From: a virus
Taxonomy: Duplodnaviria; Heunggongvirae; Uroviricota; Caudoviricetes
Direction: 5' to 3' (one strand)
DNA length: 6,936 nucleotides
IMG/VR virus record: IMGVR_UViG_2778261570_000005
Span: 1 to 6,936 of that record
A program made the translations under genes and the position numbers. This document shows positions 1 to 6,936 of the stretch, piece after piece. The notes under the pieces are model-generated. The model did not search any database and was not told the origin of the DNA. It saw only the letters and a program-made list of their open reading frames with translations. Every line of letters starts with the position of its first letter. Positions within the stretch are counted from its first letter, which is position 1.

Positions 1-604
1 ACGCCGGCGTCAGTTTACCTTTAAGCCTGAGAGTTCCGGCCGGCAGAACCAGCTCGCAGCACAGACTGTCGGACGGTGTATTTATCTGCTCAACCTGCAC
101 GGGGGCCGGGATTTTATTATCCGGCTCCGGAGTTAACGTCACGGGAAGTAGCGATGTTTCATGTTCGCCGGGCGGCTGCAGGCCGCCGTTACGCCAGAGA
201 TGCCGCCAGTTAAAGAGCAGGTTATCGTTAATTCCATTCTCTCGAGCTATTTGTGCGACACAGGCACCGGGTAAAAGAGTTTGCTGAACAAGTCTCCATT
301 TAAACTCCGGTGAAAATCGGTTCCGGCGGGTTTTCTCTGCTTTCACAGGCTGAGTCACGGTCGGGGTTGAAGGATATCGCCCCGGGAAAAGAGCCCGGGC
401 CAGTTGCCCGCAGGAATATTCACCGGAAAGAGGCCAGTCAGTGAATACCTGGTGAAATCGCCTCACCAGAGAAAAAATGGCGGTTTTGCTGACACCAGTC
501 TGCGCAGAAATGCGCGGGTACGACAGTGACTCGTCAAATCTCAGCTGTAGCACACGCAGGATCAATTCCGGATTATCTGCCAGTACCGCCTTTCGTGCAT
601 TCAT
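1..604 (-). CDS. IS66-family Orf1/TnpA-like HTH protein, partial (start ATG at 604..602, runs off window at position 1)
   Basis: My own minus-strand translation from the ATG at 604..602 is open for 201 codons to position 1 (MNARKAVLADNPELILRVLQLRFDESLSYPRISAQTGVSKTAIFSLVRRF...RRNRFSPEFKWRLVQQTLLPGACVAQIAREHGINDNLLFNWRHLW...CELVLPAGTLRLKGKL). The ORF is missing from the supplied track because it has no stop in the window. The central motif matches the IS66 Orf1 signature as I recall it (RRRxS-E-K-xVQ-PGASVS-VAR-HGV-N-LF-WR). The first in-frame upstream stop is at 688..686. Confidence 0.5.
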   Translation of the reverse strand, partial: MNARKAVLADNPELILRVLQLRFDESLSYPRISAQTGVSKTAIFSLVRRFHQVFTDWPLSGEYSCGQLARALFPGRYPSTPTVTQPVKAEKTRRNRFSPEFKWRLVQQTLLPGACVAQIARENGINDNLLFNWRHLWRNGGLQPPGEHETSLLPVTLTPEPDNKIPAPVQVEQINTPSDSLCCELVLPAGTLRLKGKLTPA

Positions 605-689
605 CTTAAATGTCCTTTTACTGCGAAAATGGACATTAGTATCGGAAACAGGAAAGGAAGGCGAAAGACGGTTTAAATGATGCGCTTAC
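1..689 (-). mobile_element. putative left end of an IS66-family insertion sequence (terminus at 689; bulk of the element outside the window)
   Basis: Minus-strand sequence starting at 689 reads 5'-GTAAGCGCATCATTTAAACC; IS66-family inverted repeats characteristically begin 5'-GTAA(GCG). The TnpA-like ORF starts 85 bp inside this end. The boundary coincides exactly with the start of the sheath ORF at 690. Confidence 0.4.
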
Positions 690-2111
690 GTGCAGACCAT
701 CTCCACGGCAGTGATTGGCCTGGTGGGGACAGCGCCGGACGCCTCTGGTGGTGTGTGCGCTTCCGGCACAGCCGGCTCCTGGCTGCTGGGAACGGCGCTG
801 GATTTCACGGCGAAACAGGAAGGTCGGGCCGGTAATAAGATTTCGGTTGTTGCTGTGGCTGCCACAGAACAAAACGCGCAGACAGTGGCCTCGCTGAAAG
901 GTACGACCCTGACGATAACACTGGGGACGGACGAACACAGCCAGGTTAACGCCACGGCGGACCGTGTGACTGAAGTGGTGAATGCGCTGGGGGATTCGCC
1001 TGTGACGGTGGCTGTCAGCACTCTGAATGCAGGAGGCGCTGAAAATAAAGTGGTGTCGCCGTTCAGCCTGACGTTATCCGGCGGAGAAGATGAGGCGTTC
1101 CCGGTCAATACACCGGTGGTAGTGGCAGGGGCCATTACTCAGGCAGGGAAACTGGGCACAGCCGGAACATTATACCCGGCCCTGCGTGATATTTTTGACC
1201 AGACTGGTGCGCTGGTGATTGTGGTGCGCGCAGAAAGTAAAACAAAGGCGAAAGAGGCCGAACAGCGTGCGGCGGTGATTCAGGCCATGGAGGCGCTGAC
1301 AGAAAGTAAGGGCGTCACAGGCTATCAACCGCGCATCCTCATTGCCACGGGGTACAGTGAGGATGATGGCGTGGCAAAGGCGCTGGAAACGTATGCCGCG
1401 AAGTTGCGGGCTGTGGCCTATATTGACTCGCCCTCAATGGCAACGCCGCAGGATGTGGTTCAGCGGCGCGCGTCATTTGGCGGACGTGTGGAGCTGCTGC
1501 GTCCGCGCGTGTCAGTGACGGATGACAGCGGGCAAACGGTATTTCGTCCATATTCGGCTCGTGCTGCCGGGCTGCGTGCCCGTATTGATTATGAAAAAGG
1601 GTGGTGGTGGTCCAAATCAAACCAGGACGTGATGAATATCACCGGTCTGGAGCAGGTGGATACGTTTATTCTCGGGGAGCAGAACTGCACGGCAAACCTG
1701 CTGAACATGGAAAATATCTCCACCATTATTCGCCATGACGGTTTTAAACACTGGGGTAACCGTCTGTGCACATCCCACAGTCAGTGGCGCTTTGAACCGG
1801 TACGTCGCACTGCAGATGTGATTGAGGACAGTATCCAGGAGGCCATGTTGCCTTATGTCGATCGCCCGCTTGATCGGGATGTGGCAGACGACATTCTTGG
1901 CAGCATTAATGCCTATATGCGTCAGCTTAAAAATCTGGGTGCGATCCACGGTGGCAGCGCCTGGCTGAATGATGAACTGAATACAGCAGAAACCCTGGCT
2001 GCCGGGCAGTTGTATATCGATTATGACTTTGGGCCGAAGTCACCACTGGAGCGCCTGACACTGCGGGCGATGATTAACAATAAACTGGCGCTGGAGGAGC
2101 TGACGGTATGA
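690..2111 (+). CDS. contractile tail sheath protein (P2 gpFI family), apparently 5'-truncated with a fortuitous GTG start
   Basis: 473-codon ORF. N-terminal ISTAVIGLVGTAPDAS and C-terminal blocks (LRARIDYEKGWWWSKSNQDV, IIRHDGFKHWGNRLCTS, LYIDYDFGPKSPLERLTLRA) match conserved blocks of P2 FI-type sheaths as I recall them. The start is GTG with no Shine-Dalgarno within 5-12 nt, and an in-frame TGA lies at 678-680. Stop TGA 2109-2111 overlaps the tube start (ATGA). Confidence 0.85.
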   Translation: MQTISTAVIGLVGTAPDASGGVCASGTAGSWLLGTALDFTAKQEGRAGNKISVVAVAATEQNAQTVASLKGTTLTITLGTDEHSQVNATADRVTEVVNALGDSPVTVAVSTLNAGGAENKVVSPFSLTLSGGEDEAFPVNTPVVVAGAITQAGKLGTAGTLYPALRDIFDQTGALVIVVRAESKTKAKEAEQRAAVIQAMEALTESKGVTGYQPRILIATGYSEDDGVAKALETYAAKLRAVAYIDSPSMATPQDVVQRRASFGGRVELLRPRVSVTDDSGQTVFRPYSARAAGLRARIDYEKGWWWSKSNQDVMNITGLEQVDTFILGEQNCTANLLNMENISTIIRHDGFKHWGNRLCTSHSQWRFEPVRRTADVIEDSIQEAMLPYVDRPLDRDVADDILGSINAYMRQLKNLGAIHGGSAWLNDELNTAETLAAGQLYIDYDFGPKSPLERLTLRAMINNKLALEELTV

Positions 2112-2626
2112 TTACGGGTGAAAAAAAACTGTTGCGCGCATGGGCGTTATTTCTTCCTGGCGGGATCCGTCTTCAGGGGGCACATGAGTACACGCCGCCA
2201 GCCATTAATATCACGACAGTGGATATCAAAACCGGCGCAATGGATGCACCGGTGGCAGTGGATGACGGCATGGAAGCGCTGACCTGCTCATTTAAGATTT
2301 ATGGCTACGATGTTGCCATGCTGACCCTGCTGGGATTACAGGCCGGGCTTTATTCGCCGGAGATCGTTGTCCGCCAGGCTTACCGGGTGGGGAATGCGAC
2401 CAGCGGACAGGTGGAAACACTGCAGGGGATGATCACCAGTATCACGCCGGATGCGCGCCCGGCAACGTCACAGGCGGAGGCTTCGGTGACGGTGGAGATG
2501 TCGCTGAGTTATTACCGTCAGGCTGTAGATGGTCTGGAAACCATCTGCATTATTCCGGAGGAATTTGTTCGTCGTATTAACGGCGTTAATGTTCTGTCGG
2601 ATCTGAAAAAAATCATCCGGGTTTAA
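2108..2626 (+). CDS. tail tube protein (P2 gpFII family)
   Basis: 172 aa, the same length as P2 FII. C-terminal ...IIPEEFVRRINGVNVLSDLKKIIRV resembles the FII C-terminus (...KVNGVDRLEQHRRNIGL). GGAGGA at 2093-2098 lies upstream of the ATG at 2108. Start overlaps the sheath stop; position is immediately after the sheath gene. Confidence 0.8.
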   Translation: MITGEKKLLRAWALFLPGGIRLQGAHEYTPPAINITTVDIKTGAMDAPVAVDDGMEALTCSFKIYGYDVAMLTLLGLQAGLYSPEIVVRQAYRVGNATSGQVETLQGMITSITPDARPATSQAEASVTVEMSLSYYRQAVDGLETICIIPEEFVRRINGVNVLSDLKKIIRV

Positions 2627-2669: not shown

Positions 2670-2680
2670 AGGAGATGCTT

Positions 2681-2983
2681 ATGTCGGAAAAAAACAGTGT
2701 TCCTGCCAGCTGCGTGGAAATTGTGTTATCCGTGCCGTATGTCACCGCATCAGGACAGACGATCACGCACGTCACTATGCGTGCGCCCACTGTCCGCGAT
2801 CGTCTGTTGCATCGCCGGAGTAACAAACCGGAAGCAGAGGCTGATCTGGATATGATTGCTGGTCTGTGTGGGATGGACGCGGCAGACATGATGAACATGG
2901 AAGCGTGTGATTACCTGGCCCTGGAGCGTCAGTTTAATGTTTTTTTGCTGCCGCCGGTCCGGCGGAAGAAGAAAGCATCCTGA
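2681..2983 (+). CDS. tail assembly chaperone (P2 gpE-like), zero-frame product
   Basis: Small ORF between tube and tape measure genes. GGAG at 2671-2674 is 6 nt upstream of the ATG at 2681; the track start at 2675 has zero spacing to that GGAG and is less likely. Ends ...QFNVFLLPPVRRKKKAS with the slippery T-run near its 3' end. Confidence 0.7.
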   Translation: MSEKNSVPASCVEIVLSVPYVTASGQTITHVTMRAPTVRDRLLHRRSNKPEAEADLDMIAGLCGMDAADMMNMEACDYLALERQFNVFLLPPVRRKKKAS

Positions 2984-3120
2984 CAGCGATACGGCGTGCC
3001 GGTGCCTGGTTCGGGTGGTCTCCCGGAGATGTGATGGCGCTGCCGTATACGGATTTTGTGGCAATGATGCTGGCGGAGTCGGAAGAGAGGAAGCTATGTT
3101 ATGGCAACGGTGGGCGATAA
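2681..3120 (+). CDS. tail assembly chaperone frameshift product (P2 gpE+E'-like), join(2681..2947,2947..3120) by -1 frameshift
   Basis: The -1 frame opens right after a TAA at 2935-2937 and runs to TAA at 3118-3120. It encodes protein-like sequence (AAAGPAEEESILTAIRRAGAWFGWSPGDVMALPYTDFVAMMLAESEERK...). The slippery heptamer T_TTT_TTG sits at 2941-2947. Predicted fusion is about 146 aa (P2 E+E' is 142 aa). Confidence 0.6.
2941..2947 (+). promoter_or_regulatory. programmed -1 ribosomal frameshift slippery site (TTTTTTG)
   Basis: Heptamer T TTT TTG in the zero frame of the chaperone gene, at the start of the open -1 frame; the same heptamer is the conserved slip site of P2-family E/E+E' genes. 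Confidence 0.6.
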
Positions 3121-4753
3121 CCTTAAAGCGAATATCCGGATCGGAGGCACGATAGATCCGTCGTGGAAAAAATCGGTTGATGGGTTGAAGCACGGATTAT
3201 CAGGAGCAACACAGGAAGTGGCTCGTCTGACACGCCAGCAGGACGTACTGAAACGAAAAATTCAGGCTGGCGTACTGGCAGGGCAGGATATTACCGATCT
3301 GCGAAAGCAGTATGAAAAGCTGAAACGGAAAATCAATGATGCTGCAGCGGAGCAGGAGCGATTTAATCGCCAGCTTGAACGGGCAGAGCGCCTGGAACGC
3401 TGGAAAGGACGGGCAGGGACATTTCTTAAAACCGGACTCGGACTCTCTGTTGGTTCCGGGCTGACGCTGGCAGCAGGTGCCAGCGCGGTACTGAACCGGA
3501 ATTCGGAAACGGCAGAGCGGGCAGGGATAGCCCGGAGTTACGGGGTGGATTACGAAACCTATGCGGCGTGGGATTCACTGGGCCGTCAGATGGGGTTAAA
3601 CGGCGAAAACATTGGTGATCTGTTTGAGGAATACCGGAACAAGGTTTTTGACGATGATAATGGTGCCACGGATAAAGGGGCCATTCAGGAGGTCTTTGGC
3701 AAACTGGGACTGAAAGCCGGGGTGATGGCAGGGAAAAGTAACCAGGAGCAGGTCGAATTTTTATTTGATCGCTTACTGCAGGTAGAGAATGAACAGGTGG
3801 CTGCCGGAATGGCAGATGCGTTGTTCGGTGGTGAGGCCAATAAAATTCTGACCTGGATGCGTCTGTCAGGGAAAACTTATCGGGAGCTTATCAGTGAGCA
3901 GAAACGCTATAACCTGGTGACAAAGGCAGGGGCTGATGGCGCAGTTCAGGGACATGTGGCACTGTCAAATCTCCGTAATGTTCTGAGTTCTTCCATTGAT
4001 GAAATCAGCGGACAGCTGGGTAATGAACTTGCCCCACATATTCAACAGGTGACGGATGACCTTGCGGCCTGGTTTAAGAATGGTGGGCTGGAAAAAATCC
4101 GGGCATTTATTCGTGATGATGCCCTGCCGGCGCTGATCGACATGGCTGCCTGGATGTGGAAATTTGGAAAAGTTCTGGCCGGAATAACGCAGAAAGCCAT
4201 TGAGTGGGGGCTGGCAGATGATCCGCGTCAGGACCGGCGAGAGGTACTGGAATATCTGGCAAAAATGGGGTCGCCGGAGCTGGCGAGAGCGGTGGCGCAG
4301 AAAAACGGCCAGGGAGAATGGTTTGATGAACTGCTCAGGCAAAATCCGGATCTGACGAAACAGGTTGTACAGGCTTATAAAGACACCCGCGGTTATCTCC
4401 CCTGGAATCATGACGATAAAAAGTTTGATGCATTTCTCGACCCTCTGCTGGGGCCGAAAGAAGAACCTGATTTTAAGGCGATAAAAGAGAAATCCCGCAC
4501 CTACATTGATGGACTTCATGCAGCAGATCCGGGGCAGGGTAATTCGGATCCCCTCTCAGCTCTTCAGTATACACCCGGCAGTGTCAGCCAGGTGGAAGTA
4601 AAACCCACATATCAGATACGGGCGGAATTTAACATCACTCAGAAGCCCGGCGAGGATGCCGGACAACTGGCAGACAGGGTAACGAAAAATCTGGGAGATA
4701 TTAATTTTGGTCAGCGTTCCCGCATGACTGATGGTGATGCATTCTGGGGGTGA
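3101..4753 (+). CDS. tail tape measure protein (P2 gpT-like)
   Basis: 550 aa, directly downstream of the frameshifted chaperone pair. N-terminal charged, coiled-coil-like region (QQDVLKRKIQ..., LRKQYEKLKRKINDAAAEQERFNRQLERAERLERWK) followed by a Gly-rich hydrophobic segment (GLGLSVGSGLTLAAGASAVL). GAGGAAG at 3086-3092 precedes the ATG at 3101. Confidence 0.8.
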   Translation: MATVGDNLKANIRIGGTIDPSWKKSVDGLKHGLSGATQEVARLTRQQDVLKRKIQAGVLAGQDITDLRKQYEKLKRKINDAAAEQERFNRQLERAERLERWKGRAGTFLKTGLGLSVGSGLTLAAGASAVLNRNSETAERAGIARSYGVDYETYAAWDSLGRQMGLNGENIGDLFEEYRNKVFDDDNGATDKGAIQEVFGKLGLKAGVMAGKSNQEQVEFLFDRLLQVENEQVAAGMADALFGGEANKILTWMRLSGKTYRELISEQKRYNLVTKAGADGAVQGHVALSNLRNVLSSSIDEISGQLGNELAPHIQQVTDDLAAWFKNGGLEKIRAFIRDDALPALIDMAAWMWKFGKVLAGITQKAIEWGLADDPRQDRREVLEYLAKMGSPELARAVAQKNGQGEWFDELLRQNPDLTKQVVQAYKDTRGYLPWNHDDKKFDAFLDPLLGPKEEPDFKAIKEKSRTYIDGLHAADPGQGNSDPLSALQYTPGSVSQVEVKPTYQIRAEFNITQKPGEDAGQLADRVTKNLGDINFGQRSRMTDGDAFWG

Positions 4754-4755
4754 AT

Positions 4756-5244
4756 ATGGTGGATTTGCTGGGCTGGGGCGTAAACCGGCTTGAGCGTGAA
4801 GCATGGGACGCGGTGGGATCATTAACGGATGTCGCCTCCCGCGTCATGCTGTCGTTTGGTGAGTTTGAATTCAGTATTGATACTGCTGCTTATAACGCCA
4901 TGAAGCGCACGATGGAATGGCGATGGGATGAACAACAGCTTATCGGAAAAAACGACCTGCTGCAGTATACCGGCAAGGGGGCCAGAACAATAACCCTTGA
5001 AGGTATGGCGCATGCAGGATTTCGTGACGGTGTGGGAATGGACGCTCTTGATACACTGGTTCAGATGGTGGATGACAATCCGGCCCCGCATCTTCTGGTC
5101 TCGAGCACAGGTGATGTGATGGGGTATTTCGTGGCAACTGCCTATTCAGATAACACCACGTCCTTTCTTCCCGGCGGTGCGCCGAAGAACAAAACGTTCA
5201 CACTGGAGCTGAAATACTATGGCGAAAAACTGGCGGACCACTGA
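4756..5244 (+). CDS. tail protein, P2 gpU-like (tail terminator/sheath-completion-type)
   Basis: Size matches gpU (about 160 aa). Internal blocks YTGKGARTITLEGM, LLVSSTGDVMGYFV and KTFTLELKYY resemble P2 gpU as I recall it (YTGEGAETVTLTG, PLVSGSGRVLGTWV, KIDFTLEL). Start ambiguous: GTG at 4750 (track) or ATG at 4756 with GGGGG 5 nt upstream; the ATG is preferred. Confidence 0.8.
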   Translation: MVDLLGWGVNRLEREAWDAVGSLTDVASRVMLSFGEFEFSIDTAAYNAMKRTMEWRWDEQQLIGKNDLLQYTGKGARTITLEGMAHAGFRDGVGMDALDTLVQMVDDNPAPHLLVSSTGDVMGYFVATAYSDNTTSFLPGGAPKNKTFTLELKYYGEKLADH

Positions 5245-5437
5245 CGGCGATATGCTGGATGATATCTGTCAGAGACACTATGGCAGCGCCGGACTTAACC
5301 AGTCACTGGCGGCGGTACTGGAAGCCAATCCCGGACTGGCTGATATTGGTCCGGTCTATCCGGCGGGAGTGGAAATCGTGTTGCCGGACTGGGTGTATGA
5401 ACCGGAGGAAAAGGAGACGTTTCAGCTATGGGACTGA
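5219..5437 (+). CDS. tail protein X, P2 gpX-like (LysM-like)
   Basis: 72 aa. DGDMLDDICQRHYG...LEANPGLADIGPVYPAGVEIVLPD aligns with P2 gpX (QGDTLDAICVRYYG...LAANPGLAELGAVLPHGTAVELPD). Overlaps gpU 3' end by 26 nt and the gpD start by 10 nt. Confidence 0.8.
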   Translation: MAKNWRTTDGDMLDDICQRHYGSAGLNQSLAAVLEANPGLADIGPVYPAGVEIVLPDWVYEPEEKETFQLWD

Positions 5438-6516
5438 ATGAGTATCAGCCGGATTTCAGCCTGACAGCAGAGGGGGAGGATATCACGAAGGCCATAAAGC
5501 GGGGGCTGGCTGAACTGCGTTATACCGATAATGGTGCTGCCACAAAGCGCTCCGATGAACTGATGATAACCCTGTTCAGTGAGACGATGGCGCTGCCACC
5601 AAAAGGCGCAGTATTAACGCTGGGACTGGGATTCAACGGAAAACTGGTAAATAAAGGCAGCTTTACCGTCTGCCAGGTGGCAAGTGGCGGTCCTCCCCGC
5701 CGGATCACCATTTATGCCACCGCAGCCCCCATGAATGCGTCAAAACATGGCGCAGACGTGACCGCACTGAAAACCCGGGCTTTCAGCGATATCACACTGG
5801 GCGACCTGGTGAAAACCATCGCCACTGAAAATAATCTGGTGGCGCGCGTCTCATCGGTGCTTGCTGATATTCATATCCCGTGGGTGATGCAGTCATCAGA
5901 ATCTGATGCTGCCCTCTTGTCCCGCATTGCAGGTATGTACGGCGCCACCAGTAAACCGACCAATGGCTACTGGTTATTTCTGGAATACGGGGCATCACAA
6001 AGTACGGGGGGCAGAAATGCGCCTGAGATAACCATTATGCCGGGTATGGTATCAGACTGGGATTATCGTGAAGGTGAGCGACAGGGCGCTGCGGGTGGTG
6101 CGAAGGGGGATAAAAAGAGCGGGAAAGTTGGGGTCCGGTATTTTGATGCCCGTGACGGACGCACACGTGAAGTTAAAGTTGACGTGGAGTCAACAGATAA
6201 GCGGCATCCGTTTACCCAGCCTGACCATGGCACCGCAAAACACTGTGCAGAGTCGAAGGTTAAACGTGTGCAGAAAGCCGGACGCCAGATGACGATAACG
6301 TTGCCCTGCAGGCCGGAACTGCTGAAAGCAGGGGCGGAGATGCGTTTTGTCACGCAGGGATTTGGTGTGCGTGAGGACCATCACTGGCAGGCTGAGTCTG
6401 TGGAGTTTTCACTGGTACCGGGACAGGGATTTACGCTGAATCTGTCACTGACCACGGATATTTCTGCAAAGGGGAAAGCCAGTGGCAAGAAAAAAGGCGT
6501 CAATTATTTTGGTTAA
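5428..6516 (+). CDS. tail late control protein D (P2 gpD-like, baseplate hub-type)
   Basis: 362 aa. Blocks GAVLTLGLGFNGKLVNKGSFTV, TLGDLVKTIATENNLVARV and SESDAALLSRIAGMYGA correspond to P2 gpD (GAVLTVHIGWQGE...GKFTV, TLGAIVKAIAARNRLEARV, ESDAKFLTRLADRYGA). AAGGAG at 5410-5415 is upstream. Confidence 0.85.
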   Translation: MGLNEYQPDFSLTAEGEDITKAIKRGLAELRYTDNGAATKRSDELMITLFSETMALPPKGAVLTLGLGFNGKLVNKGSFTVCQVASGGPPRRITIYATAAPMNASKHGADVTALKTRAFSDITLGDLVKTIATENNLVARVSSVLADIHIPWVMQSSESDAALLSRIAGMYGATSKPTNGYWLFLEYGASQSTGGRNAPEITIMPGMVSDWDYREGERQGAAGGAKGDKKSGKVGVRYFDARDGRTREVKVDVESTDKRHPFTQPDHGTAKHCAESKVKRVQKAGRQMTITLPCRPELLKAGAEMRFVTQGFGVREDHHWQAESVEFSLVPGQGFTLNLSLTTDISAKGKASGKKKGVNYFG

Positions 6517-6540: not shown

Positions 6541-6936
6541 ATGTCTGTATTAATTTCGGGGGTGCTGACGGATGGCGCGGGACTCCCCATGTCCGGATAC
6601 CATATTATTCTGAAAGCCCGACAGAATACATCCGCAGTGGTCATGAGAACGGTGGCAACAGTGGTGACAGGGTCGGCAGGAGAATATGCATTTGGGGCTC
6701 AGACCGGAAGATATGACGTTTATCTTCGGTCATGTATTGAAAGAGAATATTGTGTTGGTGATATTTCGGTTTACGACGATTCAAAGCCCGGCACACTGAA
6801 CGACTTTCTGACCGCCCTTGATGAAGGCGATTTAAAGCCGGATGTAGTGAAACGCTTTGAGGAAATGGTGGCGCAGGCGCAGCAGAGCGCGGAAGCGGCA
6901 GCGGAAAGCGAACGACAGGCCGGGCAACATGTCGCT
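6541..6936 (+). CDS. tail fibre protein, N-terminal domain homologous to lambdoid side tail fibre Stf; 3'-partial (runs off window end)
   Basis: ATG at 6541 with AGGAAA 7 nt upstream; open for 132 codons to the window end, so absent from the supplied track. MSVLISGVLTDGAGLPMSGYHIILKARQNTSAVV...ISVYDDSKPGTLNDFLTAL...VVKRFEEMVAQAQQSAEAAAE closely parallels the lambda Stf N-terminus as I recall it (MAVKISGVLKDGTGKPVQNCTIQLKA..NSTTVV...ITVYEDSQPGTLNDFL...LRRFELMVEEVARNAS). Confidence 0.8.
   Translation, partial: MSVLISGVLTDGAGLPMSGYHIILKARQNTSAVVMRTVATVVTGSAGEYAFGAQTGRYDVYLRSCIEREYCVGDISVYDDSKPGTLNDFLTALDEGDLKPDVVKRFEEMVAQAQQSAEAAAESERQAGQHVA

Follow-up and report, generated by a model that had tools for sequence, protein, structure and literature searches.

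Elements of the IS66 family are recognized by terminal repeats that begin with GTAAGCG and by 8-bp direct repeats created on insertion, and the classic members carry three open reading frames (PMC11946415; PMC12888890). In phage P2, Gly7 to Val10 of the sheath protein gpFI lie within a four-stranded "handshake" sheet (2026 preprint on the P2 tail), and in the R2 pyocin sheath the N-terminal arm comprises residues 2–25 (PMC5807055). When the equivalent N-terminal strand was deleted from Francisella IglA, T6SS function was abolished (PMC5924787).

Here we consider a 6936-bp stretch of DNA, referred to below as the window, which is the entire draft contig NLMT01000126.1 of assembly GCA_002228995.1 and in which an IS66-family element meets a contractile-sheath gene. 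The left edge of the contig lies within tnpA of the insertion sequence (IS), and its right edge lies within the repeated "prophage tail fibre N-terminal" domain (PF08400). We put the probability at roughly four in five that an IS66-family IS transposed, by simple insertion, into the sheath gene of a resident prophage at codon 18/19 and disabled its sheath and tails.

Results

Positions 683–689 of the window read CGCTTAC, which is GTAAGCG on the minus strand, and directly adjoin a GTG codon at 690. This arrangement had been picked out in a first-pass annotation, and its premise that IS66 ends start with GTAA agrees with the published family criterion of GTAAGCG (PMC11946415). The heptamer forms the outermost bases of an imperfect 25-bp terminal inverted repeat (665–689, minus strand), which together with the tnpA leader makes up the non-coding left end of the IS (605–689). 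Beyond the leader lie codons 1–201 of the 215 codons of tnpA (2–604, minus strand, with ATG at 604–602), open at the contig edge and preceded by an AAGGA Shine-Dalgarno-like motif 8 nt upstream of the ATG. TnpA scores 283.9 bits against NCBIfam NF038385 IS66_access_TnpA (cut-off 150) and also matches Pfam HTH_Tnp_1 (PF01527).

A complete 2701-bp copy of this element interrupts yhaV in E. coli PSS-15 (L004:1489–4189) and is 99.86% identical to the window over 689 nt, with one mismatch. It contains tnpA, tnpB, and tnpC and is flanked by the 8-bp duplication CTATAACG; each of its ends starts with GTAAGCG and belongs to an imperfect 25-bp inverted repeat. Its TnpB matches PF05717 with 136 bits, and its TnpC matches PF03050 with 344 bits and NF033517 with 476 bits. 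The terminal 40 nt of the IS end in the window agree base for base with the PSS-15 copy at its tnpA side, and the opposite ends of the PSS-15 copy and of a copy in E. coli M8 (see below) likewise begin with GTAAGCG. Because of the GTAAGCG terminus, the complete PSS-15 copy, and the published family criteria, the IS boundary is placed exactly at 689|690. By these sequence criteria, window positions 1–689 (minus strand) belong to an element of the IS66 family, 2.7 kb long when complete, of which they hold the tnpA-proximal end up to the contig edge. The IS66-family terminus proposed earlier is borne out by the NF038385-type TnpA and by the nearly identical complete copy with its three genes and 8-bp duplication. 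The GTAAGCG at the junction is thus much more than a heptamer arising by chance: IS66-family matches to the whole of 1–689 occur in 1758 of the 5426 complete E. coli genomes, and at least 80% of this segment is covered in 613 E. coli records, with a top identity of 99.9%.

The GTG at 690 opens a 473-codon reading frame (690–2111, plus strand) that we assign to a 5'-truncated tail-sheath gene, codons 19–491 plus stop, from its Pfam matches and its identity to WP_086625568.1. Two features noted in the first pass, the absence of a Shine-Dalgarno sequence and an in-frame stop shortly upstream, are readily seen: codon 678–680 is TGA, and no GGAG/AGGA-type Shine-Dalgarno sequence is found in 670–689 (GTTTAAATGATGCGCTTAC). 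In every other genome, the match to intact sheath loci begins at 689/690. The intact sheath gene in E. coli E41 and other strains is 1476 bp long and encodes 491 aa, and the window sheath is 100% identical to residues 20–491 of the 491-aa E41 protein WP_086625568.1. The 5' end of the intact gene reads ATG TCC GGA TTA CAT GGT GTT GAA ACC ATT GAA CTG ACG ACA GGC ACG GTT GCC GTG CAG ACC, so that intact loci have 54 more coding nucleotides and, upstream of these, the Shine-Dalgarno sequence GGGAGAA and a hairpin resembling a terminator. Absent from the window frame are the ATG, the GGGAGAA sequence, and residues 1–18 (MSGLHGVETIELTTGTVA). As judged from this alignment, GTG 690 is the codon for Val19 of the intact gene and not a native start, and the suspected N-terminal truncation amounts to exactly 18 residues relative to the intact 491-aa allele.

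Could the sheath nevertheless be short by nature and start at GTG 690, with the IS merely lying upstream? NCBI PGAP annotates the same start in M8, and RefSeq lists the 473-aa protein under an accession. However, the frame of intact alleles continues upstream for another 54 nt, as far as an ATG that is preceded by a Shine-Dalgarno sequence, distant homologues keep the N-terminal LHGVETIE motif, and the listed full-length cluster members are otherwise 491 aa long. Close homologues do not share the GTG start, since they are 491 aa long and the GTG-start form is a singleton. We consider a native start at 690 to have almost no likelihood.

The truncated form is rare. In a large protein collection, the 491-aa form is found on 274 contigs versus one for the 473-aa form (WP_089566223.1), this one being the window contig. 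Among the full-length cluster members listed, all others have 491 aa, and the sole other shorter member, of 322 aa, is annotated as partial. The junction sequence GATGCGCTTACGTGCAGACCATCTCC has 0 exact matches in species-representative genome contigs and is absent from complete E. coli genomes too. Among the latter, at least 80% of window 1–1400 is covered only by M8, and there in two pieces. Given that the gene otherwise matches the intact allele exactly and that the 473-aa form occurs once, the insertion, on these comparisons, is private to the window contig and probably recent.

We also considered an assembly artefact, a chimera of an IS read with prophage sequence. The assembly is a short-read draft, and the contig ends within repeats on both sides. 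The break, however, is exact to the base at the IS terminus, as transposition yields and unlike a random chimera, and the identical contig has been recorded in three samples. An artefact is highly improbable in our estimation.

On the plus strand, a 67-codon reading frame antisense to tnpA (477–680) ends at the TGA at 678–680, 9 nt before GTG 690. This frame is probably spurious, and it would be the sole conceivable route for translational re-initiation if a plus-strand transcript crossed the IS.

The core of the sheath protein matches PF04984 (Phage_sheath_1) with 53.6 bits and PF17482 (Phage_sheath_1C) with 61.3 bits, and among solved structures it is closest to PA0622, the sheath of the R2 pyocin (3j9q; E=1e-52). 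Residues 1–18 of the intact allele align with the N termini of the sheaths of Hafnia phage yong2, Escherichia phage vB_EcoM-569R10, Vibrio phage Valp1, and P2 (gpFI). In those homologues, 18–21 residues with an LHGV-x-x-(I/L)E motif precede a (Q/S)T(I/V)STA(V/I)(I/V)G block. The LHGVETIE motif of the intact allele aligns to P2 G7–V10 and is missing from the window frame. The first-pass annotation had pointed to a handshake arm of about 15–20 residues in P2 FI-type sheaths; such an arm is kept in all aligned homologues including P2 FI, and the alignment against the FI family confirms that the window frame has lost this N terminus. The window sheath has no strand-donating N-terminal arm and is therefore a truncated, incomplete member of its family. 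Because the N-terminal strand that links subunits is missing, a product started at GTG 690 could not be expected to build a working contractile sheath, and there is good reason to regard it as assembly- or contraction-defective.

A further feature of this sheath is the segment encoded at 795–1130 (residues 36–147), which is absent from P2 FI and PA0622; the alignment with PA0622 starts only at residue 148. This segment is probably an extra surface domain.

From 690 onward the window contains, in order, genes for the sheath, the tube, an E-like chaperone, a tape-measure candidate, gpU, gpX, and gpD, followed by the start of a second tail-fibre gene. The tail-tube gene (2108–2626, plus strand) is identified from the list of open reading frames, TGACGGTATGATTAC, and Pfam Phage_tube. 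In the remainder of the P2-type tail operon (2675–6516, plus strand), which encodes the E-like chaperone, the tape-measure candidate, and homologues of gpU, gpX, and gpD, every reading frame is intact, with Pfam matches to Phage_TAC_7, Phage_P2_GpU, Phage_tail_X, and Phage_GPD and in agreement with the annotations of the E41 locus. Gene order and Pfam matches together show the context of sheath, tube, chaperone with -1 frameshift, tape measure, U, X, and D.

Three details of this region deserve mention. The E-like chaperone gene (2675–2983) contains the in-frame slippery sequence T TTT TTG at 2941–2947, and the -1 frame is open past 3100. At the tape-measure position, a 550-aa reading frame (3101–4753) has no Pfam family above threshold; it is annotated as "hypothetical protein" in most RefSeq genomes and as "tape measure" in a few. 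The second tail-fibre gene (6541–6936; PF08400, E=1e-56) comes after gpD, in the place that ogr takes in P2, and is open at the contig end.

The E41 tail module is 98.7% identical to that of the window and sits in a complete-looking prophage (NZ_CP069707.1, 2989000–3026000; L007) integrated beside tRNA-Ser, next to the hya operon. Its gene content is mosaic: the genes for terminase, portal, S49 protease, decoration, capsid, gpFI, lysis, RusA, and replication are lambda-like, and the tail side, with baseplate, sheath, tube, and U-X-D, is P2-like. None of the isolated phages in the collection matches the tail DNA; at the protein level, the sheath finds its best matches in Hafnia phage yong2 (63%) and Citrobacter phage Chris1 (62%).

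Other IS66-family insertions are found in this tail module. E. coli M8 (NZ_CP019953.1, 1398441–1401144) has a 2704-bp IS, of the same group as that in the window, in the 5' end of the sheath gene, in the same orientation as in the window and with the duplication GGATTACA. The M8 site, at codons 2–5, lies 48 bp upstream of that in the window. In TUM9812 (L005:8851–11898) and bR_120_Kylling (L006:8853–13497), the tail-fibre gene after gpD is interrupted by another member of the family, distinct from the window IS (84% identity over 274 nt); the duplications GAATACAT and GCTCAGAC correspond to window positions 6624–6631 and 6697–6704, and the two elements have opposite orientations. TUM9812 (NZ_CP128926.1) has two copies of the tail module, at ~2.81 Mb and 3.23 Mb, one of which has the IS-disrupted fibre gene as well as other pseudogenes. 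With two copies present and one degraded, related prophages evidently coexist and decay independently.

The M8 insertion suggests a second route to the junction in the window, an M8-type insertion at codons 2–5 followed by a 48-bp deletion beside the IS end. The kind of IS, its orientation, and the gene are the same, and the sites are 48 bp apart. Identity, however, is only 95.4% between the IS copies and only 91.3% between the prophage parts, and we take the two events to be independent because of this divergence. The lineages also differ: the window IS is 99.86% identical to the PSS-15 copy elsewhere, and the window sheath is 100% identical to the E41 allele. Descent from an M8-type insertion appears very improbable.

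The four independent insertions, in the window, M8, TUM9812, and bR_120_Kylling, pair up closely: the two at the sheath 5' end are separated by 48 bp and the two in the distal tail-fibre gene by 73 bp. The target octamers GTGCAGAC and GCTCAGAC are alike. A strict hot spot is not seen: of the genomes that carry the intact junction region, M8 alone shows a break in the 5' end of the sheath gene. It is doubtful that IS66-family elements strike the prophage tail module nonrandomly, whether by target preference or by selection for tail-disabled lysogens. With so small a sample, the pairing of the four sites is a curiosity and the clustering only a mildly interesting lead.

Discussion

In the window, an IS terminus abuts codon 19 of a sheath gene, and from this we infer a simple insertion. 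Such a transposition would have duplicated GTGCAGAC, of which the predicted copy at the tnpA end occupies 690–697 (plus strand) and is projected from the related insertions only, and would have left the 5' fragment of the sheath gene 2.7 kb upstream, across the IS. It predicts that the far IS end borders ...ACGGTTGCCGTGCAGAC, with ...GGCACGGTTGCCGTGCAGAC directly before the tnpC-side end GTAAGCGGCTCGTCAG / GTAAGCGGCTCGTCAGAACCG. The 5' piece of the gene may accordingly be displaced rather than removed. The first-pass annotation had held that the IS took away the promoter, ribosome-binding site, and N-terminal arm of the sheath gene. The Shine-Dalgarno sequence, the ATG, and the arm are indeed lost from the frame, but loss of a promoter is not supported, the spacer before the intact gene being only 54 nt.

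The junction could instead have formed by IS-mediated adjacent deletion or by recombination between IS copies, with deletion or inversion. The 5' end of the sheath gene, and possibly prophage genes upstream of it, would then have been removed or relocated. Recombination partners exist, given up to 19 places per E. coli genome that match the window IS, and the contig ends inside the IS, with the far side out of view. Location of the junction at the exact IS terminus is expected under simple insertion and under deletion or recombination alike. On the other hand, all four complete IS66-family insertions examined, in PSS-15, M8, TUM9812, and bR_120_Kylling, are simple and carry 8-bp duplications (CTATAACG, GGATTACA, GAATACAT, and GCTCAGAC, respectively), and we regard deletion or recombination as unlikely.

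How the sheath region is transcribed bears on the consequences of a simple insertion. The tnpABC genes are on the opposite strand and point away from the sheath. Our scan for sigma-70-like sites facing the sheath found none in window 1–1000 or in the whole IS, and none upstream of the intact sheath gene, results that are absence of evidence only. The earlier suggestion that the tail genes might be expressed by read-out from the IS finds no support in this arrangement, with tnpABC facing away and no promoter-like site directed toward the sheath. In P2, a pF activator site and a transcription start are annotated ahead of FI. A search of the region before the intact sheath gene for a late promoter of the P2 type (TGT-N12-ACA) gave no match, but the same scan also missed the annotated pF region of P2 itself and is uninformative. 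The 54-nt spacer of the intact locus consists of the terminator-like hairpin and the Shine-Dalgarno sequence. Because the regulatory genes of the prophage are lambdoid and not those of P2, its late promoter is probably far upstream. Antitermination of the lambdoid type could carry late transcription through the IS.

The hairpin in E41 (GACCGCCTGAGGGCGGTT followed by TTTTTTT; L001:2912–2929) is strong and sits in the gap that separates the fibre-assembly gene from the sheath gene, only about 20 nt ahead of the intact ATG; it is not in the window. This placement points to a need for late transcription to pass through the hairpin, whether by antitermination or with the hairpin tuning the ratio of sheath to fibre.

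Translation of the sheath would be largely abolished by the insertion, with little or no sheath protein made, although GTG 690 could start low-level translation without a Shine-Dalgarno sequence. The sheath stop codon overlaps the tube ATG as ATGA (2108–2111), and because of this overlap translation of the tube gene is probably coupled to that of the sheath. The tube gene would lose this coupling, and the tube and downstream tail genes would suffer polarity. By analogy with homologous systems, sheath function appears to be lost, and because of this loss together with polarity on the tube and downstream tail genes, the prophage would no longer be able to make functional tails or infectious tailed particles.

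For annotation, the prophage should be scored as probably defective, and WP_089566223.1, the 473-aa "sheath", should be marked as an IS-interrupted pseudogene that lacks its 5' end. The locus illustrates how a reading frame that opens with GTG beside the end of an IS can pass for one with a genuine start. Beyond annotation it has little import. It offers a clean example of ordinary prophage decay through IS insertion, a form that is already well known, and does not represent a new kind of system.

Overall, the window joins parts that each have close counterparts in described systems. Its IS belongs with the IS679/ISCro1-like 2.7-kb group common in E. coli, with which it has in common the GTAAGCG terminus, the imperfect 25-bp repeat, and an NF038385-passing TnpA with a helix-turn-helix match. 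The name IS679 is tentative and goes by size, IS679 being 2704 bp long with 25-bp repeats. Near-identical complete copies of the group are 2701–2704 bp long, with tnpA-tnpB-tnpC and 8-bp duplications, whereas the window shows just 689 bp. The M8 locus resembles the window in the gene and 5' region hit, in IS orientation, and in the GTG-start 473-aa reading frame that PGAP calls there, but its insertion site differs. The arrangement of the slippery heptamer in the window matches that of the annotated programmed -1 frameshift of P2 (NC_001895), which makes E+E'. P2 differs in its regulatory and head genes, for which the window-type prophage carries lambdoid ones. With P2 gpFI and PA0622 the sheath has in common its Pfam domains, the N-terminal arm motif (in the intact allele), and the gene order sheath-tube-E/E'-T-U-X-D, but neither of these proteins has the ~110 extra residues (36–147) that lie between arm and core in the intact allele.
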